Positions 3,904 to 43,528 are shown, numbered from the stretch's first letter. The stretch: 64,000 nucleotides of DNA from Ulvibacterium sp. (GCF_965228935.1 NZ_OZ245846.1:1264528-1328527), one strand, 5' to 3'. The notes: generated from the sequence alone by a model not told the origin. Made by a program: numbers and translations.

Positions 3904-4093
3904 TTATAATGGAAAATATTTTACTGTTTTGTGGCTTTACTGTAAAATTTTTTGCAAAATATCCCCATTAATTCAACTTATTGGAAAATAACACGGGCAA
4001 TTATAATGGAAAATATTTGTCAAAAACCTATTTATAATAGAAAATATTTTGCAGCTTTGTGTCGTTAATGCGTGATAATGGAAAAAAATGTGC
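3904..4093. repeat. Three to four direct repeats of the roughly 17-nt motif TTATAATGGAAAATATTT (copies at about 3904, 4001, 4032 and 4075). Iteron-like or operator-like array upstream of, and overlapping, the fic start.
   Basis: Copies read directly: ttataatggaaaatatttt, ttataatggaaaatatttg, ttataatagaaaatatttt, gataatggaaaaaaatgtg. Confidence 0.5.
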
Positions 4094-11141: not shown

Positions 11142-11145
11142 TGTT

Positions 11146-25256: not shown

Positions 25257-28052
25257 TTATCGAAAGTTGAGGAATGATTTAAGACGTAGCAATACCGTTT
25301 CCTTTTCAAAATACCAGTCAGCAAATGAAATGGGGAAAACTTGAACATTGGCCCTTCGTAAGATACGGATGCGCTCTATACTCAGAGCATGTTCATAAGC
25401 TCCGGGATATCCAATAAGGTCTACCCCTAGGTATTGGTCATTTATTTTGAATAAGAGATCTAACGTTGTATCCGCTATTTTATAGTTTTCCCAGTAATTT
25501 TCGAAAACCGATTGAGGCAGACTTTGCTTTACCTCCTCTAAGAAAGTGTCATAACCCGTTGGTATGTAGTCCCCTTTCGCCTTTTGTTTATTGCCTTGTG
25601 CCAAGTACTTTCGAAAAAGATTTTCCGGTTTTAGATCTGGGTGGTCTACGGAAAAATATATGTGTTGTTGATGCCGTGCACGGGTGATGGATACGTTGAA
25701 CACTTCGGGTTTGTTCAGATGGATATGGGCAGAATGATGTGTATTGCTATCCACGACCATAGATAGGTACATGACATCTCGTTCTTCACCCTGAAAACTA
25801 TATGGGGTGCCAATTTTGATGTGGTGTCTCTCAATAATTTCGAGCGTAAATTGATCAAACAACATTTTGGAGATATATTCTACTTGACTTCTGAAAGGAC
25901 TTAAAACCCCAATGGAAGTGGCCAACGAATCGGCTAGGTCGGATTCTTTCTTAATTCGATTTTTTACATCCTTCAACAGGTTCTGGGCTTCTACAAAGTT
26001 CTCGCCCTTGTCATTTCTTTCGCCCCCACACTTTATAAAATACAAGGCCTGCTCCCTATCATCTGGTTTTGTTGTCATGAGTTGGAGCCCGTTGTCATAA
26101 AATTCGCGATTACTAAAATCAATTATGGGGGGAAGACTCCGGTAATGTTCATCGAGCATAGCTACTTGATCTCCACTTTTAAGGCTGTTCATGGCGATAT
26201 CCAATATGCTGTGGTCACGGTAATTTAAAAGGAAAGAATCGATATGGTCCAACTCAAACTTACTGGCCAATAGGTGTTGCACGTTTTTGGATAAAAAAGA
26301 AATATGTCGAAGTTGACTGGGGTCGCCGGCAAAAACGACTCTTTTTGCACGTTGTATTGCCGGAATGCAGGAAGCGATATCGCACTGGGTCGCTTCGTCA
26401 ATAATTACCACATCGAACAATTCCTTTTGGAGCGGAATCTTATCTTTTACTTCGGACAAGTTGATCAACCAGACGGGGAAGGCCTTTAGAATATTGTCGA
26501 ACTCAATTTTCTCAAAGAGCTTGGTTCTTTCTGTGTCGTTGTGTGTGTTGAGCGCGCGGTAAAATTCATTAAAATCTTTCCAGTGATACTCTATGGCCCC
26601 TAGAAGGTTGGAAACATAGTTCCATTTTAGAAAATCTTTTGTCAACCTTACGACTTCCTTGTCGTTTTTCCCCAATTCGGAAACAATTACATGTAATGGG
26701 CCCTTTATGGAGAAATTAGTGCTTAGTTTAAACCAAAGCGTCTTTAGCTCATGCCAAAACCTCTTCGCTTTTCGACTTAAAAAGGAACTTTTTTCTTTCT
26801 CCGTTACCAATACGGCCTTGAACTCTTCCTCAAGTTTTGAGCTACGTTTTTTCAGCTTGGATAATTTAAACTTGAGTTCCAAAGCATGATTTCGCAGTTC
26901 ACTTTTGGTTCGAAAACTGTTGGTTTCCTGAAACTCTTTATTCAGAAAACGTAGTGGATACTTTCGGATTAACATGGATTTTAAGAAGCGCCTTACTTTG
27001 GTAATATGCTTTCTTTTTCCTCCGCCTCTTACAATACAATGTTCAAAACCTAATTGGTCATTGATCTTATCGGCGACCACATCTACGGCTTCATCGGTTC
27101 TAGAAGCAATCAAAACGGATTCTCCGCGACTCATATGCTCCAACGCAATGGCTGATATGGTGTAGGTTTTTCCTGTGCCGGGTGGCCCTACAATTAAGGT
27201 CACGGGATTATGGGTGGAAGATGACATCAATTTTTTTTGTGCCTCACTTAGAATAGTAGGGACATAACCTTTAAATGCTTTGTTGGATCCGGATAAAGTA
27301 TTTTCGCTGTTGTCAAAAAGGTAGGACAATGAAGTAGAGAAATCTGCGGATTCTCCCAATTCCTTTAATTCGTTGAGGATCCCACGTGTTTGTTTGGATT
27401 TTTCGACAATTCCCAACACACTAAAAGGTACAATTTGATAGACATCCTTCGTGCCTTTCAATTTTTTTAGTCGATATCTTAATTTACTAAGAACGATGTT
27501 TTTTGGGTAGCCCAAAAGTTCGGTATGCTCTACATTGGGGAAGTGCTTTTCAAAAATTTTGGTTAGGCCGCTAATATGTTCAAAAAGCAAAGCGTCCCTT
27601 GGTAATGCTTCAAGCAGTTTGTCTTGAAAATTATCATTTTCATCATTGCTGCTTAAAAACTGTAGCAGGGGGTAATTGAGCCTTCTTGATTTTAAGTCAA
27701 TTCGAGCAAAATAAAACTCCTCCTTCTTCTCAATATTTACATCATAGTATAATAAGGGAGCGCAAAGGGATTGTAGTTTTCCCCTGAAATCAACATAGGT
27801 GCCACAAATAAAAAGTGACCCATAAATCAATTCCTTTTCTTTTTCAAATAACGTAATATTTTTTAACAACAACTCTGCCTGCTCATTGGGCAAGGGAACT
27901 ATTGGGTATTTGCCATTAATGAGTTCTTCTTGCTCAAAATAAATTTTATGGGCTACTTTGGACCCTAAAAAATTAAAGATACTAATAGACCTATTGTCAG
28001 ATAGGTAGCATTGATGGAAATAGGTGATAATGTCGGCAAGCTTACCTGTCAT
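25257..28052 (-). CDS. Superfamily-1 (Upf1/DNA2-like, AAA_11/AAA_12) helicase with a C-terminal endonuclease-like domain.
   Basis: Walker A LIVGPPGTGKTYT. Motif II VVIIDEATQCD. Motif VI VSITRARHQQHIYF. The C-terminal segment after the helicase core resembles REase-like DUF3320/DUF559 tails. That part is inference. Confidence 0.65.
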   Translation of the reverse strand: MTGKLADIITYFHQCYLSDNRSISIFNFLGSKVAHKIYFEQEELINGKYPIVPLPNEQAELLLKNITLFEKEKELIYGSLFICGTYVDFRGKLQSLCAPLLYYDVNIEKKEEFYFARIDLKSRRLNYPLLQFLSSNDENDNFQDKLLEALPRDALLFEHISGLTKIFEKHFPNVEHTELLGYPKNIVLSKLRYRLKKLKGTKDVYQIVPFSVLGIVEKSKQTRGILNELKELGESADFSTSLSYLFDNSENTLSGSNKAFKGYVPTILSEAQKKLMSSSTHNPVTLIVGPPGTGKTYTISAIALEHMSRGESVLIASRTDEAVDVVADKINDQLGFEHCIVRGGGKRKHITKVRRFLKSMLIRKYPLRFLNKEFQETNSFRTKSELRNHALELKFKLSKLKKRSSKLEEEFKAVLVTEKEKSSFLSRKAKRFWHELKTLWFKLSTNFSIKGPLHVIVSELGKNDKEVVRLTKDFLKWNYVSNLLGAIEYHWKDFNEFYRALNTHNDTERTKLFEKIEFDNILKAFPVWLINLSEVKDKIPLQKELFDVVIIDEATQCDIASCIPAIQRAKRVVFAGDPSQLRHISFLSKNVQHLLASKFELDHIDSFLLNYRDHSILDIAMNSLKSGDQVAMLDEHYRSLPPIIDFSNREFYDNGLQLMTTKPDDREQALYFIKCGGERNDKGENFVEAQNLLKDVKNRIKKESDLADSLATSIGVLSPFRSQVEYISKMLFDQFTLEIIERHHIKIGTPYSFQGEERDVMYLSMVVDSNTHHSAHIHLNKPEVFNVSITRARHQQHIYFSVDHPDLKPENLFRKYLAQGNKQKAKGDYIPTGYDTFLEEVKQSLPQSVFENYWENYKIADTTLDLLFKINDQYLGVDLIGYPGAYEHALSIERIRILRRANVQVFPISFADWYFEKETVLLRLKSFLNFR

Positions 28053-28070: not shown

Positions 28071-28850
28071 TTATCTCAATAATTCATGTAATTTTCCAAC
28101 TTCTTCTTGGATAAGGGTCAATCTTCCCTCTATCATATCGGAAAAATCAGGAATTCGATTGCAGAACACGTATTTTATCTCCCAAAGTTCTCTCACAGCT
28201 GAAACAGGCATCTCGATGTCTTCAATGTTTTTATGGTCCGTTCTAAGGGTGATTTCCCCGGAAGAAAAGAAGAACCTCCGAAAGATTACCTTGTCAGCGG
28301 TAATCAAAACGCAGTAGGTGCCGTTCTCGAGCTTCTTATAGTCTTTGCGTGCCAATTTTTGACCTATAACGATATCCTTGGGATAAAATCCGCGATCCAA
28401 ATGCGTCATTTCCAGGTTTTGTACCACGAAGGCACGAGATGATTCCGCGTTTGAAATAGGTAATTGAAGTTTGGGCAACCCTTTGATATAGGCCTCGTTT
28501 TCAAAAGAGGTGGGGTAATCCAAAATAAGCTCGTAGGTGACACAACCGATTTCTGGAAATAGATCTTTGGAAATCCTAGTTGAATCCGTGGTAAGGTCCG
28601 CTTTAAATTTGAGCAATTCGTTAACGGTGAGTTCACTGGTCAAGAGATCGTCGATGGAAATACTAAAATAATTAGCAATTCTTATGATTGTGTCGATTTT
28701 TGGCTCGCTACGCTGTTCTTCATAAGCCCCTAAAGTAGCTCTTTTCAAATCAAATATCTCTGAAAATGCCTGCTGGCTCATGTTTTGAACGCTCCGAATC
28801 TTTTTGATATTTTTTCCAAAGAAAGACATAAATGCTAATAATATTTGCAA
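28071..28850 (-). CDS. XRE-family HTH transcriptional regulator with a C-terminal domain of unknown function.
   Basis: N-terminal HTH IKKIRSVQNMSQQAFSEIF...ATLGAYEEQRSEPKIDTIIRIANYFSISIDDL. Confidence 0.65.
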   Translation of the reverse strand: MQILLAFMSFFGKNIKKIRSVQNMSQQAFSEIFDLKRATLGAYEEQRSEPKIDTIIRIANYFSISIDDLLTSELTVNELLKFKADLTTDSTRISKDLFPEIGCVTYELILDYPTSFENEAYIKGLPKLQLPISNAESSRAFVVQNLEMTHLDRGFYPKDIVIGQKLARKDYKKLENGTYCVLITADKVIFRRFFFSSGEITLRTDHKNIEDIEMPVSAVRELWEIKYVFCNRIPDFSDMIEGRLTLIQEEVGKLHELLR

Positions 28851-29060
28851 ATATGAAAACTATTTGCTATGTTTGTTAGGTAAATATAAAAAATTAAGCT
28901 GTCTCGAAGCTGTTTTTTGCTAAAAAACTGGAATTATATTGAGTTTAGCTATGCTTTTTAGCTATTTTATATGGACGGATTCATTAAAAGCAGAAATTTA
29001 TAGCTTAAATTGAGTTCCAAATTATTATCATTATTGTAATCATTAATCAACCAATACACT

Positions 29061-29456
29061 ATGGAAAAACATTTTCAAAAAGTCAAGGATTACCTGCAAC
29101 AGCTTGATTTTGACATTGCGACCGAAAACATTGGGGAAGGCATAATTGTCATCAACAAGGAACAGGAGGGGATAAAAAACTTGATACTCGGGGTTTTTAC
29201 CCCCATACTCATTATCGAACAGCACATATTCGATATCGCCGTTGGGGATATCAAGGTGTACAAAGAACTGCTTAAAAAGAACAGGGACATTGTACATGGG
29301 GCGTTCGTCCTTGATGGGTCCGGAGAAAAAGTAATTTTCAGGGACACCTTAAGGTTGCAGCACCTGGACTTGGACGAACTGGAAGGATCACTAAACTCAT
29401 TAAGCTTGCTATTGAGCGAGTATGCAGATCAAATTATAAACTATTCAAAACAATAA
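29061..29456 (+). CDS. YbjN/YjfI-like (DUF2170-type) small acidic protein. First gene of the PspA operon.
   Basis: 131 aa. Lies immediately upstream of, and 2 nt from, the PspA-like gene, mirroring the E. coli yjfI-yjfJ arrangement. The assignment is weak. Confidence 0.35.
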   Translation: MEKHFQKVKDYLQQLDFDIATENIGEGIIVINKEQEGIKNLILGVFTPILIIEQHIFDIAVGDIKVYKELLKKNRDIVHGAFVLDGSGEKVIFRDTLRLQHLDLDELEGSLNSLSLLLSEYADQIINYSKQ

Positions 29457-29458
29457 TC

Positions 29459-30175
29459 ATGGTAAATTTTTTTAAAAGACTGTTTAAAATAGGGGAGGCC
29501 GAAGCAAATGCCGTTATCGACAAGATGGAAGACCCTATTAAATTAACGGAGCAAGGTATACGGGATATGAAAGGCGATTTGGAGAAAAGCTTGGAATCTT
29601 TGGCACAGGTAAAGGCATTGGCCATACGTGCCAAGAACGATACTGAAGAGTTTTTGGCGAAAGCTGAGGATTATCAGCAAAAAGCAATGCTCATTCTTCA
29701 AAAAGGCCACAAAAATGAGATTGATGGTGCCGAGGCCGATCGTTTGGCCAAAGAAGCCCTTATCAAAAAGGAAGCAGCCAACCAACAAGCTGCCCGTAGT
29801 AAAAGCGATTCGGAAAAGTTTGATGGTTCGGTGGCCAAACTAGAGAAAAACGTACAGGAGATAAAACAGAACATCTCTCGTTGGGAGAACGAGTTGAAAA
29901 CGCTAAAGGCAAGGGTCAAGGTCTCTAAGGCCACCAAGAACCTGAACAAGCAAATGGCGGAAATAGACAGCTCCAGTACCGTTTCAATGTTGGAGCGTAT
30001 GAAGGAAAAAGTACAACAAGAAGAAGCCCTTGCCGAAGCCTATGGCGATATCGCAAACGCTTCCAAATCAATCGATGAAGAAATCGAAAAAGCCGCTGAT
30101 GTCTCGAACTCCAACGCCGATGCCGATTTGGCCAAGCTGAAAGAGCAACTGGGCATGAACGACAAGGAATCGTAA
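29459..30175 (+). CDS. pspA: PspA/IM30 (phage-shock protein A / Vipp1) family coiled-coil protein.
   Basis: N-terminus MVNFFKRLFKIGEAEANAVIDKMEDPIKLTEQGIRDMKGDL matches the PspA/IM30 signature. Long coiled-coil composition. Confidence 0.75.
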   Translation: MVNFFKRLFKIGEAEANAVIDKMEDPIKLTEQGIRDMKGDLEKSLESLAQVKALAIRAKNDTEEFLAKAEDYQQKAMLILQKGHKNEIDGAEADRLAKEALIKKEAANQQAARSKSDSEKFDGSVAKLEKNVQEIKQNISRWENELKTLKARVKVSKATKNLNKQMAEIDSSSTVSMLERMKEKVQQEEALAEAYGDIANASKSIDEEIEKAADVSNSNADADLAKLKEQLGMNDKES

Positions 30176-30221
30176 ATCACGACCACGACGTATACTATTA
30201 CACCTTAAACACCAACCAACT

Positions 30222-30932
30222 TTGGAAAACTACTTTGATATCATCTTTTCGCAGGTAAACATTACCTTAAGTGTATTGTTGATTATACTCATAATCTACT
30301 GGTTAATAACCATGATTAGCGGTATAGACTTCGACTTGGATGTGGATGTGGACGTCGATATAGATGCAGATGTTGATGTAGACATGGACACCGGTATTGA
30401 AGGAGGAAGCATGGACTTTTCTGATGTTGCCAATGCCGAGGTTGACCGTGAACATGTAGTAAATAAAGGTACTCGTAAACTTAAATGGTGGCAGATCATA
30501 TTGATTTATTTCAATTTTGTAGGTCTGCCGTTCATGTTCACGTTTACGTTCTGGATTTTTAATTGGTGGCTTATAAGTGTACTAACGACAATGCTTACAG
30601 TCAGCTATGATAATAGTTTCGGCTTTGTTATAGTGTTGTTGGCCATTGTTCCGTCATTAATACTTACCAAAATCTTAACGGCACCATTTAAATCCTTCTT
30701 TAAAAACCTTAATAAAGATGGGGATAAAGCGGTGGACTTTTTAGGAAGACAGGCAATACTTCTGTCCAATATTTCAGGAGAAAAACTGGGTAATGCCGAG
30801 GTGAATGTGGACGGAAACATTATGAATGTCTATGTGAAATCACTTGACGGATCGGAATTACGCTTTCGTGAAAGTGTACTCATCATCAAACAATCTGATG
30901 ACAAAAATTTCTTTTTTGTAAGTAAATCATAA
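30222..30932 (+). CDS. NfeD-like (YuaF/YqiJ-type) membrane protein with an acidic (D-x)n repeat and a C-terminal OB-fold.
   Basis: Transmembrane segments. C-terminal beta-rich domain GRQAILLSNISGEKLGNAEVNVDGNIMNVYVKS...LRFRESVLII. Lies immediately upstream of the flotillin gene, the classic NfeD-SPFH pairing. Confidence 0.6.
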   Translation: MENYFDIIFSQVNITLSVLLIILIIYWLITMISGIDFDLDVDVDVDIDADVDVDMDTGIEGGSMDFSDVANAEVDREHVVNKGTRKLKWWQIILIYFNFVGLPFMFTFTFWIFNWWLISVLTTMLTVSYDNSFGFVIVLLAIVPSLILTKILTAPFKSFFKNLNKDGDKAVDFLGRQAILLSNISGEKLGNAEVNVDGNIMNVYVKSLDGSELRFRESVLIIKQSDDKNFFFVSKS

Positions 30933-30967
30933 GTCAATTTAAACAACTAAAAAAATAAGTAACAACT

Positions 30968-33034
30968 ATGGAAGGAATCTTGCCTATCATCGTAACGGGA
31001 GTAGGGATACTGCTGTTTCTTATAATCGTATACTTTGCGATTATAGCCCTATTCTATAAAAAAGTACATCAAGGAGAAGCGCTGGTGCGTACCGGTTTTG
31101 GCGGCACCAAGGTCGCTACGGACAAAGGACTTTATGTAGTGCCTGTTTTTCACCGTGTTGAAGTTATGGATATCTCTGTAAAGAAAATCCAGATTGAGCG
31201 TATGGGTGTAGAAGGGCTAATCTGTAAAGATAATATGCGTGCAGATATTAAGGTAGCATTCTTTGTGCGTGTGAATAACGAGGTAGAGTTCATTAAAAAA
31301 GTGGCACAAACCATTGGTGTCGCACGTGCCTCTAGAAAAGAAACATTGGAAGACCTTTTTGAGGCAAAATTCTCGGAAGCATTAAAAACCGTAGGTAAAA
31401 AGTTTGAATTCACAGCGCTGTATGAAGCACGACGTGAATTCCGTGATGAGATTGTAGATATCATCGGCACGGATTTAAATGGATACACACTCGAAGACTG
31501 TGCTATTGATTACCTGGAACAAACAGCTGTATCCCATTTAAAACCGGACAACATCCTAGATGCTGAAGGTATTAAGAAGATTACCGACCTTACAGCCGCT
31601 CAAAACATCAAGGCAAACCTTATCAAAAGGGATGAGGAAAAAGTAATCCGAAAGCAAGATGTGGAAGCTAGGGAGGCTATTTTGGAATTAGATCGCCAGT
31701 TGGCTGAAAAGGAAGAGCAACAAAAGCGTGAGATAGCCAACATAAAGTCAAGGGAAGAGGCTGAAATTATCAAGGTTTCGGAAGAGGAAAAACTAAAGTC
31801 CGAGAGCGCGAGAATTGCTACGGAAGAAAAAATCCAAGTGGCTGAAGAGAACAAACAACGTCAAGTAGTGGTGGCCCAAAAAAACAAAGAACGTACCACG
31901 GCTGTTGAAACGGAACGTGTTGAAAAAGACCGAGCACTGGAAGCTACGGAGAGAGAACGAGTGGTAACCTTGGCACAGATTGAAAAAGACAAGGTGGTTG
32001 AAGTTGAGAAAAAGAACATCCAAGACGTGATTCGCGATCGTGTTATGTTGGAGAAAGGAGTTGTTGAAGAGCAAGAAAACATGAAAGATATTCAAGCCTT
32101 CAAGGGAGCTGACCGTGAAAAGCAAGTGAAAGTTACCTTGGCCGAAGCTGCTGCCCAAGAAGATTTGATCAAAACTTTGAAAGCCGCTGAAGCTCAAAAA
32201 GAGGCGGCAAAACAACAGGCCGAAGAGATTAACATAGAGGCCCAGGCCAAGAAAGAGGCCAGCGAAAAAGAAGCTGAAGCCCGAAAAACATTGGCAGAGG
32301 CCAGAGCTAAAGAGGAAGCGACTATTGGTTTATCAGAAGCTGAAGTAATGCACGCCAAAGCGGATGCCTCTGAAAGACAGGGTACGGTTGAAGCCTTGAT
32401 TATCGAGAAGAAAGCCAAGGCAGAAGCAACGGGTATAGAAGCCAAAGCCGAAGCTATTAAAAAAGAAGGGTTGGCCGAAGCTGAAGTTATAAAAGAGAAG
32501 GCCATTGCAGATGCAGCCGGTATCGAGGAGAAAGCCAATGCCATGAAGAAACTTGATGGTGTGGGCAAAGAGCACGAAGAGTTTAAACTAAGACTTGAAA
32601 AAGAACTACAAGTAGACCTCGCCCATATCAATATTCAAAAAGAGATTGCCGATGCCCAAGCAAGTGTACTATCAGAAGGATTGAAAGCAGCAAATATCGA
32701 TATCGTCGGTGGAGAATCCATGTTCTTTGACCAAATCGTAGGACAGATTACCCGCGCCAAAGGATTTGATCGTTTGGTACAGCATTCCGAACAAGTTCAA
32801 GACATCAAAGATGCCATCTTGGGCAGTGAAGATGTTGCCGGTAATTTACTTGACCGTATCAAAGAATTTGCCGTGCAGTATGATATTTCAAGCGAAGACT
32901 TGAAGAACTTATCCGTGGCCGGTTTGTTACTGCAACTTAAGAGCAAGACCACCAGCAACGAAGAGGGCAATATGTTCGACAACTTATTGAATCTTGCCAA
33001 AAGCTTGGGATTGGGCAATAAAAAACTGAAGTAA
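30968..33034 (+). CDS. Flotillin-like SPFH/band-7 protein (YqiK/FloT-like) with a long Ala/Glu/Lys-rich coiled-coil region.
   Basis: N-terminal transmembrane segment, then the SPFH core (YKKVHQGEALVRTGFGGTKV...). Extended EA/KA-rich repeats typical of flotillins. Confidence 0.75.
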   Translation: MEGILPIIVTGVGILLFLIIVYFAIIALFYKKVHQGEALVRTGFGGTKVATDKGLYVVPVFHRVEVMDISVKKIQIERMGVEGLICKDNMRADIKVAFFVRVNNEVEFIKKVAQTIGVARASRKETLEDLFEAKFSEALKTVGKKFEFTALYEARREFRDEIVDIIGTDLNGYTLEDCAIDYLEQTAVSHLKPDNILDAEGIKKITDLTAAQNIKANLIKRDEEKVIRKQDVEAREAILELDRQLAEKEEQQKREIANIKSREEAEIIKVSEEEKLKSESARIATEEKIQVAEENKQRQVVVAQKNKERTTAVETERVEKDRALEATERERVVTLAQIEKDKVVEVEKKNIQDVIRDRVMLEKGVVEEQENMKDIQAFKGADREKQVKVTLAEAAAQEDLIKTLKAAEAQKEAAKQQAEEINIEAQAKKEASEKEAEARKTLAEARAKEEATIGLSEAEVMHAKADASERQGTVEALIIEKKAKAEATGIEAKAEAIKKEGLAEAEVIKEKAIADAAGIEEKANAMKKLDGVGKEHEEFKLRLEKELQVDLAHINIQKEIADAQASVLSEGLKAANIDIVGGESMFFDQIVGQITRAKGFDRLVQHSEQVQDIKDAILGSEDVAGNLLDRIKEFAVQYDISSEDLKNLSVAGLLLQLKSKTTSNEEGNMFDNLLNLAKSLGLGNKKLK

Positions 33035-33085
33035 TAAGGAAATAGGCTCCAACTCACATTTTGGTTGTGAGCCTAAATTCCTCTA

Positions 33086-33424
33086 TTGAACTATCATACA
33101 ATGTTCAAAAGATTTTCACAATGGTTTTTCGGTATTGATGACGCTCAAAAAGAGAGAAATCCCATCAAAGAAATTCACCTAGAAAAAGGAAGAATTGAAA
33201 TAATCGTCATGCCAGACCTTGGATATGGCAAGGAATATAAAATTACCAAGTGGCATGTGCAACCTGGGCAATTGATCAAAACCGGTGATGTGGTCTGTGA
33301 TTTAGAGAACAGAACGATTTTGATGGAGTTTGAAAGCATCTACGGCGGTCGTGTATTACCGATTGTACAGTTAGACCAAAAACTTAAAGTGGGTGATGCA
33401 ATCTTTAAAATCGAAGGGGTTTAA
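33086..33424 (+). CDS. Small biotinyl/lipoyl-like (hybrid-barrel) domain protein.
   Basis: KITKWHVQPGQLIKTGDVVCDLENRTILMEFESIYGGRV resembles a lipoyl/biotin-attachment barrel fold. A candidate attachment Lys sits in KITKW, but no canonical (A/V)MKM attachment motif is present. Confidence 0.35.
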   Translation: MNYHTMFKRFSQWFFGIDDAQKERNPIKEIHLEKGRIEIIVMPDLGYGKEYKITKWHVQPGQLIKTGDVVCDLENRTILMEFESIYGGRVLPIVQLDQKLKVGDAIFKIEGV

Positions 33425-36400
33425 GATAAAAGCAGGAAGAAAAACAGGCCGTTGGAGGCGCACATCAATTAATCAAATAAAATCAATGCAGGAAGAAAAA
33501 CAAGATACTCCCAGCACTACCATACTTGATGATGGCACCTATGAAATCATCCAAGGACGATTAAAGGAACAGAAAAACGACTTACAGGTACGACTCAATC
33601 GACTGAACGACGGCCGGAAAGAGGTCTTTGGAAGCGTGGTTACCAAATTGATCGCGAACAAAAGAATCAATACCGAGAATAATTGTATCGCAAGGGATAT
33701 CATTACCATTGGAGAATACAGCATTTTGGGTTACAATGTGCATTTCGGGCTTCGTACCAATATCAAACTCGAAGATGTTTTTGGTATCTATAAGTATCAG
33801 GAAGGGAATTTCATCCCTCGGCCACTCGATTTGATCAGCGATGAAGTATTTATAAATGATTTTGTAAACCTCTATAAGTATTACCGCAATACCATTTTTG
33901 CCAAGTTCGCCATGGTCGGGAACTATCTGCATATGGTCTTTCAATTGAGTGATAGCATCTCGGATATCAAAACCTTTAAATGGTTGGTCAATGACGGTAC
34001 CTTGAAGTACCAGAATAATCGCAGTGAACATGAATTTAAAATACCGCCGCAGCATGAATTCAATTGGACAGAAACCAATCGGGATATGCAGCGGTATGGT
34101 GAACATCCTCATGTTTCTATTCTGGAAAAGGTGTTTGTTGAGACCATAGGGGGAGACCTTACCATTAAAATTGAAGACAATACGGACGAAGGGCTTGGTA
34201 TTTTTAAGGAAGATGTTCTTCATAAAGACCAGACCTTGGATGACGGGAAGTTCAGATATGCCGAAATCGGCAACCTGATTGCCATTGAAATTAAGCCTTT
34301 TCAGGAAGAATCGCGATATTTTGTATACAACCACAAGATACAGGAAGTAAAGAAAATACCTAGTATTAAAGACGCTTGCTTGCAACTTCCCAATGACCAA
34401 GGGGTCATTTACCCTAACGGTTATTATCTTCAATCTGGCACCTTTAAATTGTTTGACAATGATTTAGGAAAGGTGCAGTTTCAGGAAAAAATCAGTTCCC
34501 CTAATGGAGAAGATTTCCTTTATGTGTTTTATGAAAGCAAAGAAGGATTGTACGTGTTGATGTCCTATAATGTTATCGAGCAAGAGGTAAAGACTCCGAT
34601 TATCTGTAACGGATTCACACTTTTAAAAGATGGGGAACTTTGTTATTTCAAAACGGACAACGAACAGACCAAGCATCATGTTGTCCAAATATGGCAGACC
34701 ACTTTTATGAAAAGTACTGGCATTCCATCGGAACATACCGACACCTTACTCTATAAAATTGGCAATAAGGATATTGTTGAGGCTATGGCGGAGTGTCAGT
34801 CACTCATAACATTATTAAATAAGGAGGATAGTTATGGAGGCTTATATGATGATTTGGTCAAGTTTTCAACTGATATTCTCGACAGTTACTATTGGATCCA
34901 CGAAGAAGAAGCCCATCAGCTCAACCTGCCCCTTACCGCTATCAATGAAACGGCCAATGCGGCGATCGATGAATTTGAAAAGGTCGTTCAACTGAGGAAA
35001 ACGGCGGCAACCACCACAAAGGCGACCCAGGAAACGGCGGAAGAGATTTCCGGAAAAATAAAGAGCAGTTCCTTTAAATCTATCGATGATTTTGTCCGGA
35101 TTTTATCAAAGCTACGTTCATTTCGAGGAGAGGTCATCGGATTGAAAGAAGTACGGTATGTGGACCTTTCCTTTATCGATGCGCTTGAACAAGAGATTGC
35201 CGAACAAACCGAAAAAGTCTCCCAACGTTGCGTTCTTTTTTTGATAGACGATAAAGCGCTAGCACCCTATCAAGAACGTGTTGCCGAAAAGCAAGGCCTG
35301 CTTGATAAAGTGGCAAAAGTGGTTGAAACAAAGCAACTTCAGGATGAAGTCGGCCAGATCGCGGTAGACCTTGAAATGTTGATTGAGATCGTTTCGAATC
35401 TAAAGATTGAGGATACTTCGCAGACCACGAAAATCATTGATAACATCTCTTTGATCTTCGCTTCGATCAACCAGTTGAAAGCAGCTATTAAAAATAAGAT
35501 CAATTCACTTTCGGTGGAGGAATCAGGGGCCGAATTCGTAGCCCAACTGAAGCTGGTCGATCAAAGTGTGATCAACTACCTCGATGTTTCGAATACCCCT
35601 GAAAAGACCGATGAGTTGTTGAACAAAGTGGCCCTGCAATTAGAAGACTTGGAAGGCAGGTTTGCCGATTTCGAGGATTTTATTTCCCAAATTATTGAAA
35701 AGAGAGAGGAAGTATATAATGCTTTTGAAAATAGAAAGACGGCGTTGATTGAGGCTAGAAACAAACGAACCGTAGCTTTGGAAAACTCGGCGAACAGAAT
35801 TTTAAAGGGCGTACTCAAGAAATCACTCACTTTTGATAACCTAAACGACATCAACGGTTACTTTGCCGGTGATTTAATGGTCAGTAAGATTCGCGATATC
35901 GTTCAGCAGCTCTTGGAGCTGGAAGATTCAGGAAAGGCCGAGGCCATTGAAACCGCGGTTAAAGTAGCCAAGGAAGACGCCATAAGAAAACTAAAGGACA
36001 AGCAAGACCTATATGAAGATGGTGAGAACATCATCAAATTGGGCAAACATAAATTCGGGGTCAATAAGCAGGCCCTGGATCTTACCATCGTATACAAAGA
36101 TGAAGGGCTGTATTATCATTTGACAGGCACGGACTTTTATCAAGAAATCGAAAACGATATCCTTACCCGATCACAAGCGTATTGGAATCAAGAACTAGTT
36201 TCCGAAAATGAAACGGTGTATCGGGCCGCTTACTTGGCGTATAAGATTTTCAAAAGGGAAGACAAAACCTATTTGCATGACTTGTCGAATGCTGCTCTCA
36301 AGAAACTAGTGACCGAGGAAACGAGCAAGAATTATGCGGAAGGCTATGTAAAGGGAGTTCATGACGAAGACGCCCAAAAAATATTACAAAAACTCGTATC

Positions 36401-38369
36401 AAAACACCATGATCTAGGGGTTTTGACCTATCCGCCTAAGATTCGTGCATTTGCCCAATACTTTTGGCAGACCTTGAAGAGTGCTGAAATCGGCCACTGG
36501 AACGGAAGACTTAAAAACGCCGGACAGGTAGTAAAGACATTTCCGAATAGCACCGCCCACAAAAAAGTTGTCGCCCAATTAGCTGAGGCGATCTCTGACT
36601 TCGCCGAAGAGAACCAGGTGTTCGATACATCCTGTAGCCATGACATTGCCCAATATCTTTTTGAGGAAATCAAAGACCATAATGATTTTGTGATCAGTCA
36701 TACCGCCCAAGAACTGTATGGGCAATTTGCCAAGAAATTGAAGGGCAAAAAGTTGTACTCGAAAGTAAAGGAAAAGGTGGCAATCGACCCGCATACCGAA
36801 ATGGATGACCATCAGGAGCGAATTGCATTGGCCTGGCAATGGGTCAAAGCCTATCTTGGCGATGGTTCAGAACAACAACAGCAGTATTTACACGAAGTTT
36901 GTTGTTTATTCCTATTCCCAAATGGCACAAGGACCATTGCTACTACCCCTGAAGAGGATATTACCCAAATGAAAGGGAGTCATGCGAGCTTGATCGAGGG
37001 GGTTTTTGCTTTTAAATACCACAAGTTCGTTGCCACCCTTGAGCATTTCAATTCCTATGAAGTTAAGGCGTTCAATGCGTTTACCAAGGCAAAACATGAA
37101 TTGACAGAGCAGGTGAAGTCCGATTTAAAACTCGATGGGTTCAAGCCTAGGGTATTGTCGTCCTTTGTAAGGAATAAATTGATCGATCAAGTCTATTTTC
37201 CATTGATCGGGGATAATCTGGCAAAGCAATTGGGAAGCGCCGGCGAGAACAAACGCACCGATAGAATGGGGATGCTACTTCTCATTTCCCCCCCGGGATA
37301 CGGTAAGACTACCCTTATGGAGTACATGGCAAACCGCTTGGGGTTGATCTTTATGAAGATTAACGGTCCTGCTATTGGGCATGAAGTTACTTCGGTCGAC
37401 CCCAATACCGCGACGAATTCGGCAGCAAAGGAAGAGTTGAAGAAGCTCAATTTGGCCTTTGAGATGGGTAATAATGTTATGTTGTATCTGGATGACATCC
37501 AGCATTGCAATACGGAGTTCTTGCAGAAATTCATTTCTTTGGCCGACGGAACAAGAAAGATCGAGGGTATTTATAACGGGGTAGCTAAAACCTACGATTT
37601 ACGAGCCAAGAAGTTTTGTGTGATCATGGCCGGAAACCCTTATACCGAAAGCGGGGATAAGTTTCAAATCCCTGATATGTTGGCCAACCGGGCCGATATC
37701 TACAACTTAGGCGATATTATCGGCGACACCGCAGATTTGTTCGAACTTAGCTTGATTGAAAACGCGTTGACATCCAACCCTATCTTACAGCAGCTAAGCA
37801 GTAAGTCGTTTGAGGATGTCTACCAATTGATTCATATGGTTGTTAGTAAAACCGAAGACACCTCTTTGCTCAAAGGGAATCATACCCGTCAAGAGATTCA
37901 AGACTATTTGGCTGTTTTGGATAAAGTAGTACGCGTAAGAAATACGGTATTACAGGTGAATGGAACTTATATCAAATCAGCAGCCATGGAAGATGCCTAT
38001 CGAACAGAACCTTCTTTTAAACTACAAGGTTCGTACCGTGACATGAACAAGTTGGTGGCGAAAATTGTTCCTATCATGAATGGTGACGAATTGGAAACCT
38101 TGTTGCTGTCCCATTATGAAAACGAGTCCCAAACGCTGACCAGTGCGGCCGAGGCCAACCTGCTGAAGTATAAAGAGCTCACACAGTCGTTGTCTAAAGA
38201 AGAACAGGCACGATGGAAATCCATTAAGGAAACTTTTGTGGAAAAAAACAAAATGAAAGGACTGGGAAATCAAGCTGCAATGTTCCAATTATTGGGGCAG
38301 GTATCGGAGTTTAATAAGCACTTGGAAGGGATTCAACAAGCTTTGCAAGAGCAAGTGAAAGGGAAATGA
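33393..38369 (+). CDS. Giant (about 1630-1658 aa) protein with a C-terminal MoxR/AAA_5-like AAA+ ATPase module. The start is ambiguous (an alternative Met lies at about 33486).
   Basis: Walker A LLLISPPGYGKTTLMEY. Walker B VMLYLDDIQH. Sensor region AGNPYTESGDKFQIPDMLANRADIYNL. About 1200 aa of N-terminal sequence is unassigned. Confidence 0.7.
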   Translation: MMQSLKSKGFKIKAGRKTGRWRRTSINQIKSMQEEKQDTPSTTILDDGTYEIIQGRLKEQKNDLQVRLNRLNDGRKEVFGSVVTKLIANKRINTENNCIARDIITIGEYSILGYNVHFGLRTNIKLEDVFGIYKYQEGNFIPRPLDLISDEVFINDFVNLYKYYRNTIFAKFAMVGNYLHMVFQLSDSISDIKTFKWLVNDGTLKYQNNRSEHEFKIPPQHEFNWTETNRDMQRYGEHPHVSILEKVFVETIGGDLTIKIEDNTDEGLGIFKEDVLHKDQTLDDGKFRYAEIGNLIAIEIKPFQEESRYFVYNHKIQEVKKIPSIKDACLQLPNDQGVIYPNGYYLQSGTFKLFDNDLGKVQFQEKISSPNGEDFLYVFYESKEGLYVLMSYNVIEQEVKTPIICNGFTLLKDGELCYFKTDNEQTKHHVVQIWQTTFMKSTGIPSEHTDTLLYKIGNKDIVEAMAECQSLITLLNKEDSYGGLYDDLVKFSTDILDSYYWIHEEEAHQLNLPLTAINETANAAIDEFEKVVQLRKTAATTTKATQETAEEISGKIKSSSFKSIDDFVRILSKLRSFRGEVIGLKEVRYVDLSFIDALEQEIAEQTEKVSQRCVLFLIDDKALAPYQERVAEKQGLLDKVAKVVETKQLQDEVGQIAVDLEMLIEIVSNLKIEDTSQTTKIIDNISLIFASINQLKAAIKNKINSLSVEESGAEFVAQLKLVDQSVINYLDVSNTPEKTDELLNKVALQLEDLEGRFADFEDFISQIIEKREEVYNAFENRKTALIEARNKRTVALENSANRILKGVLKKSLTFDNLNDINGYFAGDLMVSKIRDIVQQLLELEDSGKAEAIETAVKVAKEDAIRKLKDKQDLYEDGENIIKLGKHKFGVNKQALDLTIVYKDEGLYYHLTGTDFYQEIENDILTRSQAYWNQELVSENETVYRAAYLAYKIFKREDKTYLHDLSNAALKKLVTEETSKNYAEGYVKGVHDEDAQKILQKLVSKHHDLGVLTYPPKIRAFAQYFWQTLKSAEIGHWNGRLKNAGQVVKTFPNSTAHKKVVAQLAEAISDFAEENQVFDTSCSHDIAQYLFEEIKDHNDFVISHTAQELYGQFAKKLKGKKLYSKVKEKVAIDPHTEMDDHQERIALAWQWVKAYLGDGSEQQQQYLHEVCCLFLFPNGTRTIATTPEEDITQMKGSHASLIEGVFAFKYHKFVATLEHFNSYEVKAFNAFTKAKHELTEQVKSDLKLDGFKPRVLSSFVRNKLIDQVYFPLIGDNLAKQLGSAGENKRTDRMGMLLLISPPGYGKTTLMEYMANRLGLIFMKINGPAIGHEVTSVDPNTATNSAAKEELKKLNLAFEMGNNVMLYLDDIQHCNTEFLQKFISLADGTRKIEGIYNGVAKTYDLRAKKFCVIMAGNPYTESGDKFQIPDMLANRADIYNLGDIIGDTADLFELSLIENALTSNPILQQLSSKSFEDVYQLIHMVVSKTEDTSLLKGNHTRQEIQDYLAVLDKVVRVRNTVLQVNGTYIKSAAMEDAYRTEPSFKLQGSYRDMNKLVAKIVPIMNGDELETLLLSHYENESQTLTSAAEANLLKYKELTQSLSKEEQARWKSIKETFVEKNKMKGLGNQAAMFQLLGQVSEFNKHLEGIQQALQEQVKGK

Positions 38370-38544: not shown

Positions 38545-39984
38545 TTATACCTTTTTCAAAGACATAAAGGTCTTCTGGAAACTTGACTTACCAGATTCAC
38601 ATACCGGACAGACGTAGGTTTCCGGAAGCTTCTCAAATGAAATGCCGGCATGTATTCCATTTTTTTCATCCCCCAAAGCCTCATCGTAAATGGTAAGACA
38701 TAGGGTACATTGGAATGCTTGGATTGCAACGGTTTCTTCTTCCAAGACCTCCTTGGACGTTTGCCCACCCTCTCCCAATTGTCCGAAATATTTTTTGCTA
38801 AGTTCCATTAATAGGCCGGGAAGCTCTACTTTGTCCACATCCTGTGCATAGGAAATATAGGTTTGCGTATTGGGGTCAAAGGCCTCATAGTGCAATACAT
38901 TGTATGTGGGTCGTATTTTAAAATCCTTTACTATGGTAGGGGACAGGTTTTTTTCAATGATTACCGAAGCGAAGTGTGAGCGCTTGCCTACATCGTTACT
39001 TATCCCAAAGGTTAGGCCGTACGTGCTGATGTCGTTTTCATCAAAATTGCGGACCAAAAACTTTTTCAGTTCAAAGGCATCGTTATCGCCCACCGGTAAA
39101 TGCCAGTTCATTTCCAGTTGTGAATGACGCACATTGATTCCGCGTTGCCCAATAAAACGCTCCAGTTCGGATCGGTGCTGTTGTTTAATGCCTTTTACGA
39201 CAAAGGATTTCCACGGGGTGATGCATATCTTTCCGATACTGTGGTCCAAACAAAATCCGCAGAAGTCTTTTAGAAACTGTAGGTCATAGCGATTGTTTCT
39301 CCAATACAGCCCCAACCAATATTGGTCAATGCCCATGCGGTTCATCCCCTCATAGTAAGGGAAGGTCAAATATGGGATTTCTAAATTCTTTTCCATACTC
39401 TTGTTGTTGGTATCTATGGTCTTATTGAGAAGGGCAAACAGGGAATCCAAATCCTCCACTGTATCTAACAGCGCTTCAATTGTCCTTGAAATCATGACAA
39501 TATCCCAGCTGTATATCAAAACGGGATAGTATCCAGAAATCCCAACATTGGGAATATCGATGTATAGATACCAATAATCTTCCTGCTCCGAAGCGATAAA
39601 GTTGAGGTTCCCGCTGAATAGGGGTACCAATCGCTGTCTGGGGTCGGTAATGTTTATTTTTAGTTTGGGCAAGTAATTAAACGCTTCCAAAATGTACAAG
39701 TAGGTAGAACCTTTGAGCCAATAGGTCATCTCAAAAATATCGGCGGAAACATAGGACGAAACAATATTCTGGTAACTTCTATCATCTATAATATCCGTAT
39801 TGTACTTCGTGATATTTTCCAGGGAAGTTTCATCATGGGTATTTAATGGAAACAAAAGATCTTGCCGGGAACCGAAATACACCTCGTTTAGGCCTGCAGC
39901 CTCTAACATGGCAATACTGTCCTTCAATTCCCCAGGGGAGGTGACCCCTCCTTTAATCAATATGCGGTGTAGATCGTCGTTCAT
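38545..39984 (-). CDS. Rubredoxin-domain-containing protein, adjacent and probably accessory to the nitrate reductase.
   Basis: C-terminal rubredoxin motif CTLC...YVCPVCESGK. Confidence 0.55.
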   Translation of the reverse strand: MNDDLHRILIKGGVTSPGELKDSIAMLEAAGLNEVYFGSRQDLLFPLNTHDETSLENITKYNTDIIDDRSYQNIVSSYVSADIFEMTYWLKGSTYLYILEAFNYLPKLKINITDPRQRLVPLFSGNLNFIASEQEDYWYLYIDIPNVGISGYYPVLIYSWDIVMISRTIEALLDTVEDLDSLFALLNKTIDTNNKSMEKNLEIPYLTFPYYEGMNRMGIDQYWLGLYWRNNRYDLQFLKDFCGFCLDHSIGKICITPWKSFVVKGIKQQHRSELERFIGQRGINVRHSQLEMNWHLPVGDNDAFELKKFLVRNFDENDISTYGLTFGISNDVGKRSHFASVIIEKNLSPTIVKDFKIRPTYNVLHYEAFDPNTQTYISYAQDVDKVELPGLLMELSKKYFGQLGEGGQTSKEVLEEETVAIQAFQCTLCLTIYDEALGDEKNGIHAGISFEKLPETYVCPVCESGKSSFQKTFMSLKKV

Positions 39985-39994
39985 GCCTCAATAT

Positions 39995-42900: not shown

Positions 42901-43528
42901 TCTGGGTTTTTCTGGGGTCTACTACAATTATTTTGATATTGGGGTTTTCTTCCTTGTGCCTTTCCAACCTACGGAACAAAATAGGGTGGCACCATGCGGG
43001 GTTTGCCCCTGCAATCAAAAAGCAATCGGCCAGTTCAATGTCCGCGTAGGAAATAGGTACAGCGTCTTCACCCACGGTTTTTTTATATCCCATTACGGCA
43101 GAGCTCATACACAAGCGCGAATTCGTATCAATATTGTTGGTGCCTATAAAGCCTTTGGTCAATTTGTTGGCCAGATAGTATTCTTCGGTAAGACATTGAC
43201 CCGAAACATAAAATCCCACACTGTCGGGGCCGTGTTTTTCAATGATGCTTCCAAACACGGCGGCCGCCCTTTTTAGGGCAGTATCCCATGTTACACGTTC
43301 CAGGGAATGGTTACGGCTCCACCGCATTTCGGGATAGCGTATGCGGTCGCCGGTATCTTGGACTACGTAGTTTAGGTTCTTTCCCTTGGAACAGAGCATC
43401 CCCTTGTTTACCGGGTAGTTCTCGTTACCCTCAACGGAAAGTACCCCCTTGGTATCCTTGGTAACGGTTATTCCGCAGCCTACCCCACAATAGGAGCATA
43501 TGGTGTTATGACTTTCTTTTTTCTGCAT
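39995..43528 (-). CDS. nasA: Assimilatory nitrate reductase NasA fused to a NAD(P)H-dependent FAD oxidoreductase (NirB/NasB-like) module and BFD-like [2Fe-2S] domains.
   Basis: N-terminal 4Fe-4S motif CSYCGVGCGITV of molybdopterin oxidoreductases. MopB core and molybdopterin dinucleotide-binding region. FAD/NAD(P) Rossmann folds VVIGAGAAAY and VVIVGGGLLGLE. C-terminal CSCAQV...GCGSC. Confidence 0.85.
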   Translation of the reverse strand: MQKKESHNTICSYCGVGCGITVTKDTKGVLSVEGNENYPVNKGMLCSKGKNLNYVVQDTGDRIRYPEMRWSRNHSLERVTWDTALKRAAAVFGSIIEKHGPDSVGFYVSGQCLTEEYYLANKLTKGFIGTNNIDTNSRLCMSSAVMGYKKTVGEDAVPISYADIELADCFLIAGANPAWCHPILFRRLERHKEENPNIKIIVVDPRKTQTCALADIHLQLLPGTDVILFNAIARWLIEKKKIDLTFIKKHTSNFEACKQSAFELTLHEAAKKCGIPIDDIRKAARAIGNAKGFISMWTMGLNQSVIGVDKNVSLLNLSLLTGHIGKPGSGPFSLTGQPNAMGGREVGGMASLLAAHRNLANEKHRKEVEEFWGGKPIKKEAGLTATEMFDALEKGTLKAIWIICTNPVVSMPNAHKVEAALKKANFVIVQDISHNSETTKYADLLLPAAGWLEKEGTMTNSERRISYLPKVVDAPGEALPDAEILWRFAQEMGYHGFDYTSASEVYDEYCLMTKGTNIDISGLSYDRLKREGSFQWPVPHKAHKGTPRLFQDQRYHTADGRAHFNAPKKLYNQSEQTDSEYPLILNTGRVRDQWHTRTKTGKVKRLLTHIPTPFLEMNTVDAFLLGLQEGDMAIVKSRRGSVRVKVKINFNIREKVVFLPMHWGKVLNNDFSRANNLTNDLVDPISKEPDFKYCAVRVEKYIKPKQKIVVIGAGAAAYRFIRSYREKNETDELHVFSKEPYPFYNRVLLPEYVNEELPWEALQKLKQGELEKLGVDLYPGNGITEVNAQKKYVVDDHGNQHGYDLLVMATGSRAFVPNEVRMGLPGRFTMRERSDADNLKRYLYETGLPPTEQHVVIVGGGLLGLELAASLKKIDINISIIQRAPRLMERQLDPVASRLLAEDVAERGIHLYFDNEVSTVFEDAQRKHSLLVSLKTGRTISCNAIVYAIGTRPNIELAKQADLETRRGVLVNSYLQTSRPDIFALGEIAEFENSLFGITSAAEQQADIAANFILGDLSSIYSGSVSMNILKFEDLDLCSIGMVNAPAHDSSYEEIILMDVRKRFYKKCIVKNDTLKGTILMGDKNEFAEFKRMIEEEIELSEKRNELLRGAPNTQPLKGKLVCSCAQVGEGNIQEALRNGCSDFSKLCSETGAGLGCGSCKPEVKALIDVEFKAALS

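Follow-up and report, generated by a model that had tools for sequence, protein, structure and literature searches.

An operon class that combines genes for a CesT/Tir-type protein, PspA, a flotillin and a AAA+ ATPase was described in silico by Ravi et al. (2024, mSystems, PMC11237479), with a prototype in Dokdonia donghaensis DSW-1 (ANH61663.1) that is accompanied by a divergent 'cHTH+Protease' gene (PMC11237479 supplement). These authors noted that abbreviated operons without PspA also exist, reported β-propeller repeats in the N-terminal region of the giant ATPase and considered it unknown how PspA homologues without a AAA+ partner regulate their assembly; their description includes neither an experiment nor an assignment of the AAA+ module to a clade (PMC11237479). 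In Acidobacteriota, PspA has been associated with band-7/FloT proteins, with NfeD as a gene-neighbourhood partner, and helix-turn-helix (HTH) regulators are encoded in PspA operons (Popp et al. 2022, PMC9239133). Here we describe an operon of six genes, the last of which encodes a giant ATPase, at positions 29061-38369 of a 64,000-nucleotide stretch of DNA from Ulvibacterium sp. (GCF_965228935.1, NZ_OZ245846.1:1264528-1328527; the whole stretch is hereafter referred to as the window). A first-pass annotation, made from the sequence of the window, could not place these genes in a described system. The operon nevertheless belongs to the class of Ravi et al. (PMC11237479), the prototype of which comes from the same family, Flavobacteriaceae.

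The block is filled by six open reading frames (ORFs), all on the + strand and separated, after correction of the start codons, by gaps of 2, 46, 35, ~51-66 and 61 nt, in agreement with the initial description of six co-directional, closely spaced genes. It is bordered upstream by a divergent gene on the - strand and downstream by convergent nitrate-assimilation genes. The terminator scan found no + strand terminator-like site inside the block, but the counts from the promoter and terminator scans did not exceed those obtained with shuffled sequence, and the promoter models of the tool exclude Bacteroidota. The genes, and the domains of the giant protein, are:

28071-28850, - strand: regulator with an XRE-type HTH and a degenerate S24 (LexA/CI-like) C-terminal domain (Pfam HTH_19)
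29061-29456, + strand: CesT/Tir-like chaperone, 131 aa (Pfam CesT_Tir_1, PF22550)
29459-30175, + strand: PspA/IM30 family protein, YjfJ-like, 238 aa (Pfam PspA_IM30)
30222-30932, + strand: NfeD/YqiJ-like membrane protein, 236 aa (structural model and Foldseek)
30968-33034, + strand: long flotillin, 688 aa (Band_7; homology to E. coli YqiK)
33101-33424, + strand (ORF from 33086; database start 33209): accessory lipoyl/biotinyl-like barrel protein (Biotin_lipoyl)
33486-38369, + strand (ORF from 33393): giant soluble ATPase, 1627 aa, named 'DNA repair ATPase' in databases
33579-34892, + strand: DUF3686 N-terminal domain of the giant ATPase (Pfam PF12458, E=2.4e-174)
35253-35504, + strand: DUF7902 helical/coiled-coil segment of the giant ATPase (Pfam PF25472, E=7e-25)
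37275-37646, + strand: AAA+ core of the giant ATPase (Pfam AAA, AAA_5)

The window has the gene set, the gene order and the divergent HTH and protease-like gene of the class of Ravi et al., and two Dokdonia loci (L035 and L042) have these genes, with the regulator, in the order of the class, with 63-84% protein identity. Adjacent genes for a CesT/Tir protein and a YjfJ-type PspA, a flotillin anchored by a transmembrane (TM) segment and, at the level of fold, a YqiJ/YuaF-type protein with three TM segments were all found. In the giant protein, the AAA+ module was confirmed and a helical DUF7902 segment was detected, and DUF3686 would correspond to the β-propeller repeats reported by Ravi et al. 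The lipoyl-like gene that separates the flotillin and ATPase genes of the window is an addition to the published class and is not mentioned in the paper; neither the loss of the S24 catalytic dyad nor the operator motif described below was found in its main text or supplement. We interpret the operon, with moderate confidence, as a flotillin-centred membrane-maintenance or remodelling module with a PspA add-on, of the class of Ravi et al.; a role in membrane stress or remodelling fits the domains of the proteins, their predicted topology and the strongly conserved association of the genes. A membrane-remodelling or envelope-stress function with an ATP-driven giant component had also been put forward in the first-pass annotation, and is in line with the published inference.

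Conservation was analysed in a sample of 80 genome loci encoding the giant protein, all from Flavobacteriaceae, by tblastn with the window proteins. The flotillin was present in 78 of these loci, the NfeD-like protein in 77, PspA in 70, and the CesT-like protein and the divergent regulator in 68 each; in the two loci where the flotillin was missing, the sequence is truncated by the end of a contig. The NfeD-like, flotillin and ATPase genes were found together in 77-78 of the 80 loci. The invariant core of the operon is therefore the trio of NfeD-like protein, long flotillin and giant ATPase, and the CesT-PspA pair and the regulator constitute a recurrent add-on. Co-conservation in related genomes was thus observed for five of the genes, but not for the six as the single unit that had been proposed, as the lipoyl-like gene is present in only five of 81 operons (the 80 loci and the window) and lies within a hypervariable slot. 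PspA was not found in six loci (L014, L018, L019, L020, L056 and L060), and in three Winogradskyella-like loci (L065, L068 and L074) the trio follows a divergent PspA (37-43% identity), with no CesT-like gene and no regulator. The missing or divergent PspA in these nine loci indicates that the PspA dyad has been lost or replaced several times.

Outside Flavobacteriaceae, a tblastn search of plasmid records yielded 13 full-length relatives, with 34-48% identity. A plasmid of Hymenobacter, which belongs to another taxonomic order, has an identical operon (divergent 'LexA family' regulator, Tir chaperone, PspA, DUF1449, a hypothetical protein corresponding to the flotillin, and 'DNA repair ATPase'), Pseudomonas plasmid pQBR103 carries a YjfI-PspA operon of the polyamine type fused to SPFH and ATPase genes, and Streptomyces and Deinococcus have a small protein, the flotillin and the ATPase only. 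The flotillin gene lies directly upstream of the ATPase gene in six of six distant loci (Hymenobacter, Pseudomonas, Streptomyces, Deinococcus, Proteus and Vibrio), and the flotillins of the distant loci are 36-50% identical to the window flotillin, versus 25-31% to YqiK.

These distributions bear on the possibility that the CesT-PspA pair and the NfeD-flotillin-ATPase trio are independent modules that are merely neighbours in Bacteroidota. Such independence is consistent with the six Flavobacteriaceae loci with the trio but no CesT-PspA pair, with the three in which a different PspA occurs without CesT or regulator, with the trio standing alone in Streptomyces and Deinococcus, with the entry of variable genes between the PspA and NfeD-like genes, and with the abbreviated operons noted by Ravi et al. 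(PMC11237479). However, fusion of a CesT/YjfI-PspA dyad to SPFH and ATPase genes is seen, with different intervening genes, in Flavobacteriaceae, in Hymenobacter and on the Pseudomonas plasmid, and its recurrence in three lineages argues for a functional link. The tight spacing in the window and the lack of an internal terminator-like site there also count against separate modules, and we consider this explanation rather unlikely.

The product of 29061-29456 matched the Pfam model CesT_Tir_1 across residues 1-131 of 131 (E=1.4e-52), and this CesT/Tir-like chaperone is a functional analogue of YjfI. Its stop codon is 2 nt ahead of the pspA start codon, and the pair is translationally coupled. 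The identification of the second product as PspA was upheld by Pfam (PspA_IM30, E=5.7e-43, 147.5 bits against a cut-off of 33.9), but this protein scored below the NCBIfam equivalog cut-offs (58 bits against 243 for TIGR02977 and 39 against 380 for LiaH). As these scores are far under the cut-offs for classical PspA and LiaH, it was classified as a YjfJ-like PspA. Domain scans detected no PspB, PspC, PspF or LiaI gene in the block. Membership of the classical phage-shock system (PspFABC) or of the LiaH group was rejected, given the sub-cut-off scores and the partner genes not being found. In yjfIJKLMC-type operons of E. coli, which include polyamine genes, a CesT/Tir-superfamily protein is likewise followed directly by a YjfJ-like PspA, but no DUF2491, DUF350, DUF1190 or glutathionylspermidine-synthase gene is present in the window, the chaperone of which matches CesT_Tir_1 and does not bear the name YjfI/DUF2170. 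The pspA-ydjGHI (samGHI) operon of B. subtilis also encodes PspA together with an SPFH protein, which recruits PspA to the membrane; it differs in that YdjI is a cytosolic SPFH protein, that the partners are TPM and zinc-ribbon proteins and that there is no ATPase.

The NfeD-like protein gave no match with Pfam or NCBIfam models, including those for NfeD and YqiJ, even at E-values up to 10; alignment with E. coli YqiJ by hhalign was negative (probability 0.8%), and a profile search of the PDB yielded no match. The AlphaFold2 (AF2) model consists of three long helices and a five-strand C-terminal domain (predicted local distance difference test, pLDDT, 75-83), and its top PDB fold matches, obtained with Foldseek, were the NfeD domain of YuaF (2K14, E=1e-4, TMt 0.74) and PH1510-C (3WWV, E=9e-3). 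A hydropathy scan identified three TM segments, giving the layout TM1, acidic DxDxD loop, TM2-TM3 and C-terminal OB-fold, and we infer that the OB-fold is cytoplasmic. Homologues are named 'OB-fold-containing' or 'DUF1449 family' in databases. On the basis of the predicted structure, the initial assignment as an NfeD-like OB-fold protein holds for fold and architecture only, with no match to any sequence model. The loop between TM1 and TM2 contains a strictly alternating acidic repeat, DFDLDVDVDVDIDADVDVDMD, encoded at 30320-30480 (residues 34-85). The D positions of this repeat are almost invariant in 31 orthologues, its length varies, it is disordered in the AF2 model and it is not present in E. 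coli YqiJ; it may bind cations.

A gap of 35 nt separates the NfeD-like gene from the flotillin gene downstream of it. The full-length flotillin did not match any Pfam model, probably because of the compositional bias of its coiled coil, and a sequence search of the PDB returned only noise. The N-terminal 260 aa matched Band_7 (E=1.7e-15, residues 32-232), and BLASTP with E. coli YqiK gave 31% identity over 468 aa, including the coiled coil (E=3e-49), in agreement with the SPFH/flotillin identity initially proposed; the Pfam 'Flot' C-terminal domain gave a marginal match (E=6.6). The protein comprises one N-terminal TM segment, the SPFH/Band-7 domain, a coiled coil of ~330 aa rich in E, A and K, and a C-terminal region. 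Several antisense ORFs of 112-145 aa are present on the - strand within this gene (31150-32631), and are probably artefacts of the repetitive coding sequence of the E/A/K-rich coiled coil. A multi-TM OB-fold protein followed by an N-terminally anchored SPFH/flotillin protein is also the arrangement of yqiJ-yqiK in E. coli and yuaF-floT in B. subtilis, and E. coli YqiJ has the same layout of TM segment, loop, two TM segments and β-domain as the window protein. Nevertheless, neither pair is associated with an ATPase, PspA or CesT protein, the window flotillin is ~135 aa longer, and the window NfeD-like protein has no detectable sequence similarity to YqiJ and is distinguished by its DxDxD acidic loop.

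The fifth gene encodes a small protein matching Biotin_lipoyl (PF00364, E=2.9e-10, 40.3 bits against a cut-off of 22.1). Homologues were found in four of the 80 related loci (Flagellimonas, Croceivirga and two Tenacibaculum), tblastn alone recovering two and the clustering of ORFs from the gaps raising the count to four; a database homologue search returned only the protein itself. At the canonical position of the carrier lysine, at the tip of the hairpin, the five copies have T, T, D, R and R, and the lack of this lysine in all of them implies that the protein cannot be lipoylated or biotinylated. A function as a cofactor carrier was therefore rejected, the modifiable lysine (E-T-D-K-A / A-M-K-M motif) being gone. 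The barrel fold proposed in the first-pass annotation was thus borne out, unlike the role of this protein as a partner in the operon: the gene is a sporadic accessory insert rather than part of the core, and we infer that it is a lineage-specific passenger or adaptor. An N-terminal motif, M-x-x-R-F-x-x-W-x-x-G (MFKRFSQWFFG in the window, 33101-33160), is common to the window and the loci L001 and L002, and its retention in these loci makes the ATG at 33101 the probable start codon. This comparison of sequences implies that the 71-aa database call starts too late. By eye, this N-terminal motif is similar to the amphipathic start of the PspA encoded in the operon (MVNFFKRLFKIG).

The lipoyl-like gene occupies one of two junctions at which genes vary. 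Across related loci, the flotillin-ATPase junction ranges from 69 nt to 2.5 kb and constitutes a hypervariable slot (L003-L069), the cargo of which includes, by eye, GIY-YIG-like, REP-type transposase-like, DUF559-like, acetyltransferase-like and pentapeptide-like proteins and, in Aquimarina, a 24-member family of TM proteins of 76-105 aa. The junction between the PspA and NfeD-like genes contains a YbjQ/UPF0145-like gene (104-144 aa, by eye) in 10 Aquimarina loci (L003-L017), and two unrelated ORFs in its place in locus L012.

From its start codon at 33486, the giant protein has 1627 aa and is 100% identical to the NCBI Ulvibacterium protein P0001. This start, which leaves no overlap with the lipoyl-like gene, is the most likely, and the length of 1658 aa initially given is accordingly probably too great. 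A C-terminal ATPase had been reported as the only recognizable part of the protein, but DUF3686 and DUF7902 were also found. The giants form a uniform named multidomain family, with the architecture DUF3686, DUF7902 and AAA in 24 of 24 diverse members; the DUF3686 family has 727 representatives of clusters at 50% identity, and hits of 1600-2036 aa have the domain at their N-terminus. The hydropathy scan detected no TM segment in the protein. Searches of the PDB with the sequence and with profiles returned matches to the P-loop region only, and the sole PDB resemblance of DUF7902 was a weak one to helical bundles (syntaxin, E=0.012).

The AAA+ core was recognized by the Pfam models AAA (E=1.3e-7, 32.5 bits) and AAA_5 (E=1.7e-7, 31.8 bits, cut-off 22). 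It contains Walker A (SPPGYGKTT, K1274), Walker B (LDD, D1336-D1337), sensor-1 N1384 and R1402 (numbering of the 1627-aa protein), and the motifs SPPGYGKT (Walker A), hhYhDDIQH (Walker B), AGNPYTE (sensor 1) and IPDMLANRADxYNLGD are invariant or almost so, both in five phyla and in a set of 42 sequences with 28-48% identity. In the AF2 model of the last 478 residues (overall pLDDT 54, core 70-90), a β-hairpin follows the Walker B strand and precedes the sensor-1 strand, and helix 2 has only an irregular loop. Foldseek matches to this model were RuvB, NorQ, MCM, Lon, Vps4 and CbbQ, all with E-values of ~1e-7. The C-terminal module was thereby confirmed as a genuine AAA+. A pre-sensor-1 insert is missing from classic-clade AAA+ proteins (Vps4, p97 and FtsH), and a Vps4-like, classic-clade identity was rejected on the basis of the predicted hairpin.

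The first-pass annotation considered the ATPase to be of MoxR/AAA_5 type, and a MoxR-type maturation chaperone would act in cofactor insertion or client activation, perhaps with the lipoyl-like protein as carrier, the flotillin and PspA serving for localisation only. AAA_5 does exceed its cut-off (31.8 against 22 bits), the model has a pre-sensor-1 β-hairpin, NorQ and CbbQ, both of the MoxR family, rank high in the fold matches, and the segment 'NP...IPDMLANRAD' resembles, by eye, the MoxR pattern 'NP...AllDRF'. However, the Pfam model AAA scores equally and the fold matches are spread over several families rather than specific to MoxR, so that this type is possible but was not established. 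Moreover, no VWA/MIDAS partner gene was present in any locus inspected, MoxR proteins are stand-alone proteins of ~300-350 aa versus 1627 aa here, and the putative carrier has no carrier lysine and is missing from 76 of the 81 operons. A maturation chaperone is therefore an unlikely explanation.

The membrane-module interpretation is also to be weighed against the names given to the giant protein and the regulator in databases. The product of the divergent gene has an HTH_19 domain (E=4e-12), and its score of 18 bits with Peptidase_S24 is below the cut-off of 23.3. When 70 orthologues and the Hymenobacter protein were aligned, Glu was found in place of the catalytic Ser (NLEM for GDSM) and Arg in place of the Lys in at least 90% of the 70 orthologues, and this loss of the Ser/Lys dyad makes LexA-style self-cleavage unlikely. 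SOS control of the LexA type was rejected, as the regulator has no Ser/Lys dyad and its S24 score is below threshold. A DNA-damage or repair system, in which an SOS-type regulon would include an ATPase acting on DNA, would account for the NCBI and Pfam names ('DNA repair ATPase' and 'LexA family regulator'), for the presence of RuvB among the best AAA+ fold matches and for the HTH and S24-like architecture of the regulator. It is at odds with the sub-cut-off S24 score and with the loss of the dyad needed for RecA-stimulated self-cleavage, and no DNA-binding, nuclease or helicase domain was detected in the 24 diverse members of the giant family. In addition, the RuvB match is no better than those with NorQ, MCM, Lon and Vps4, the ATPase gene is invariably linked to genes for membrane proteins rather than to repair genes, and no paper supporting the name was found in the literature. 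We therefore regard a repair function as very improbable, and the names 'LexA-family' regulator and 'DNA repair' ATPase as probably misleading.

The intergenic region between the regulator and the operon contains two copies of a 13-bp palindrome, CTAW-N5-WTAG:

28867-28879: candidate operator 1, palindrome CTATGTTTGTTAG, adjoining the start codon of the regulator gene
28949-28961: candidate operator 2, palindrome CTATGCTTTTTAG, in direct-repeat family D1 with operator 1

A third copy in the window lies within the regulator gene (28663-28675). The palindrome occurs in 68 of 69 orthologous divergent intergenic regions, with at least two copies in 49 of them, at conserved offsets from the start codon of the regulator gene. 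The 69 regions contain 122 sites in total, a count inflated by the kinship of the loci, whereas shuffled sequences gave a mean of 2.9 and a maximum of 7. The half-sites are kept while the spacers and flanks diverge, and the palindrome is a candidate operator of the regulator. The intergenic region of the Hymenobacter plasmid (L082, 5385-5425) lacks CTAW-N5-WTAG but has another palindrome, GCTCAAAACTTGAGC (GCTCAA-N3-TTGAGC). The Hymenobacter regulator is 32% identical to that of the window, and the different palindrome suggests that the operator has co-diverged with the regulator.

The surroundings of the operon in the window include mobile and defence-related genes upstream and a metabolic cluster downstream:

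1-23203: integrative and conjugative element (ICE)-like stretch of low GC (0.33-0.36 across most of 1-22 kb)
4072-5550: Fic protein of the ICE-like element
5578-7284: type IV coupling protein of the ICE-like element
7281-8180: DUF5712 protein of the ICE-like element
9138-11195: MZB/DUF1998 protein of a DISARM-like set on the ICE-like element
11146-14868: DEAD/Helicase_C protein, 1240 aa, of the DISARM-like set
14858-16645: DrmE_C protein of the DISARM-like set
21959-23203: tyrosine integrase at the edge of the ICE-like element
25257-28052, - strand: superfamily 1 (SF1) helicase (AAA_11/AAA_12), 931 aa, directly behind the regulator gene
38545-43528, - strand: convergent nitrate-assimilation cluster

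The ICE-like element also encodes an FRG-domain protein, and a tRNA scan revealed no tRNA gene near the integrase that could serve as an attachment site. The top PADLOC matches of the SF1 helicase were Mokosh MkoA and MkoC (E ~1e-40); among the 80 loci, this helicase is found beside the operon only in the two nearest relatives, L001 and L002. The nitrate-assimilation cluster, which adjoins the operon in none of the 80 related loci, contains a gene for a 1177-aa protein in which a molybdopterin nitrate reductase is joined to a pyridine-nucleotide-disulphide reductase carrying rubredoxin-C and BFD domains, and a second gene for a 479-aa NIR_SIR-ferredoxin-like protein with a rubredoxin domain at its end.

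This neighbourhood raises the question of anti-phage or anti-plasmid defence, with the giant ATPase as sensor or effector and the flotillin and PspA protecting or permeabilising the membrane. Besides the DISARM-like system on the ICE-like element 13 kb upstream and the Mko-like SF1 helicase adjoining the regulator, such a role is suggested by the homologous operons on plasmids and megaplasmids in several phyla and by the variable cargo of the flotillin-ATPase junction; giant NTPases with N-terminal sensor domains are frequent in defence systems. However, a search of PADLOC-DB v2 with the six operon proteins gave nothing significant (mad8, the best match, was marginal at E=0.003 and covered the P-loop region only), no homologue of the giant ATPase was found in a phage collection, and no nuclease or toxic effector domain was detected. 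Its synteny and apparently vertical inheritance across Flavobacteriaceae, together with its own regulator, set the operon apart from typical defence islands; the ICE-like element ends at the integrase, well away from the operon, and the slot contains selfish or small genes that are unrelated to one another rather than defence genes. A defence function thus seems improbable.

If the operon is a membrane-maintenance or remodelling module, its parts might work together as follows. The regulator would keep its own gene and the operon repressed, and a signal from the envelope or membrane would lift this repression by a route other than LexA-type self-cleavage. By analogy with YuaF-FloT and PH1510-PH1511, the OB domain of the NfeD-like protein would bind the flotillin and nucleate its oligomer at the inner face of the cytoplasmic membrane, and the CesT-like chaperone would hold PspA unassembled until its delivery to damaged or flotillin-marked membrane. 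The giant ATPase would oligomerise through its AAA+ module, grip flotillin and/or PspA assemblies by its DUF3686 and coiled-coil parts and spend ATP on remodelling or disassembling them, a role functionally analogous to that of Vps4 on ESCRT-III or of FtsH inside HflK/C cages. We tentatively propose that the dedicated task of the DUF3686-AAA+ giant is to remodel or disassemble flotillin cages with the energy of ATP, and to act in the same way on PspA polymers in operons that have the dyad; we give this proposal clearly less credence than the membrane module as a whole. Under it, the signal sensed by the pseudo-S24 regulator would come from the membrane and not from damaged DNA.

PspA is a member of the ESCRT-III superfamily. 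The ESCRT-III/Vps4 systems (archaeal CdvB-CdvC and eukaryotic) resemble the operon in that PspA is encoded with a AAA+ protein, which invites the idea of an ATP-driven polymer remodeller. Nevertheless, Vps4 is a classic-clade protein of ~400 aa with an MIT domain, whereas the window ATPase has 1627 aa and a predicted pre-sensor-1 hairpin, and tracks the flotillin rather than PspA. HflK/C-FtsH similarly pairs an SPFH membrane scaffold with a AAA+ enzyme, but FtsH is a membrane-anchored, classic-clade protease and the giant ATPase has neither a TM segment nor a protease domain.

Several points weigh against the interpretation as a membrane module powered by the giant ATPase. The predicted hairpin would place the AAA+ module of this protein outside the classic clade to which Vps4 and the other known polymer disassemblases belong. 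Its Walker B has DD in place of DE, which could make hydrolysis slow or regulatory. The overall pLDDT of the AF2 models is modest (54-61), a profile search of the PDB retrieved no solved relative for DUF3686 or the middle region, and a literature search on the ATPase family (DUF3686, PF12458, flotillin with AAA+) yielded no experimental paper. On the regulatory side, the kinship of the loci bears on the operator site count, as stated above.

The value of this particular locus is limited, as the operon class and a prototype from the same family are already in the literature, from which the locus differs only by the sporadic, non-lipoylatable lipoyl-like insert. The present analysis adds a clearer division between core and accessory genes, reasons to regard the two database names as probably misleading, a candidate operator and a partial clade placement of the ATPase. 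Flotillins and PspA/ESCRT-III proteins are universal membrane organisers, and the operon class provides a concrete candidate for what powers their assembly and disassembly in bacteria, with a giant ATPase that is inseparable from a specific flotillin subfamily in at least five phyla. If the remodeller proposal is true, the giant would be the functional equivalent of Vps4 in bacteria, with a AAA+ module of another clade, and would supply the energy source noted by Ravi et al. as missing for PspA homologues without a AAA+ partner.

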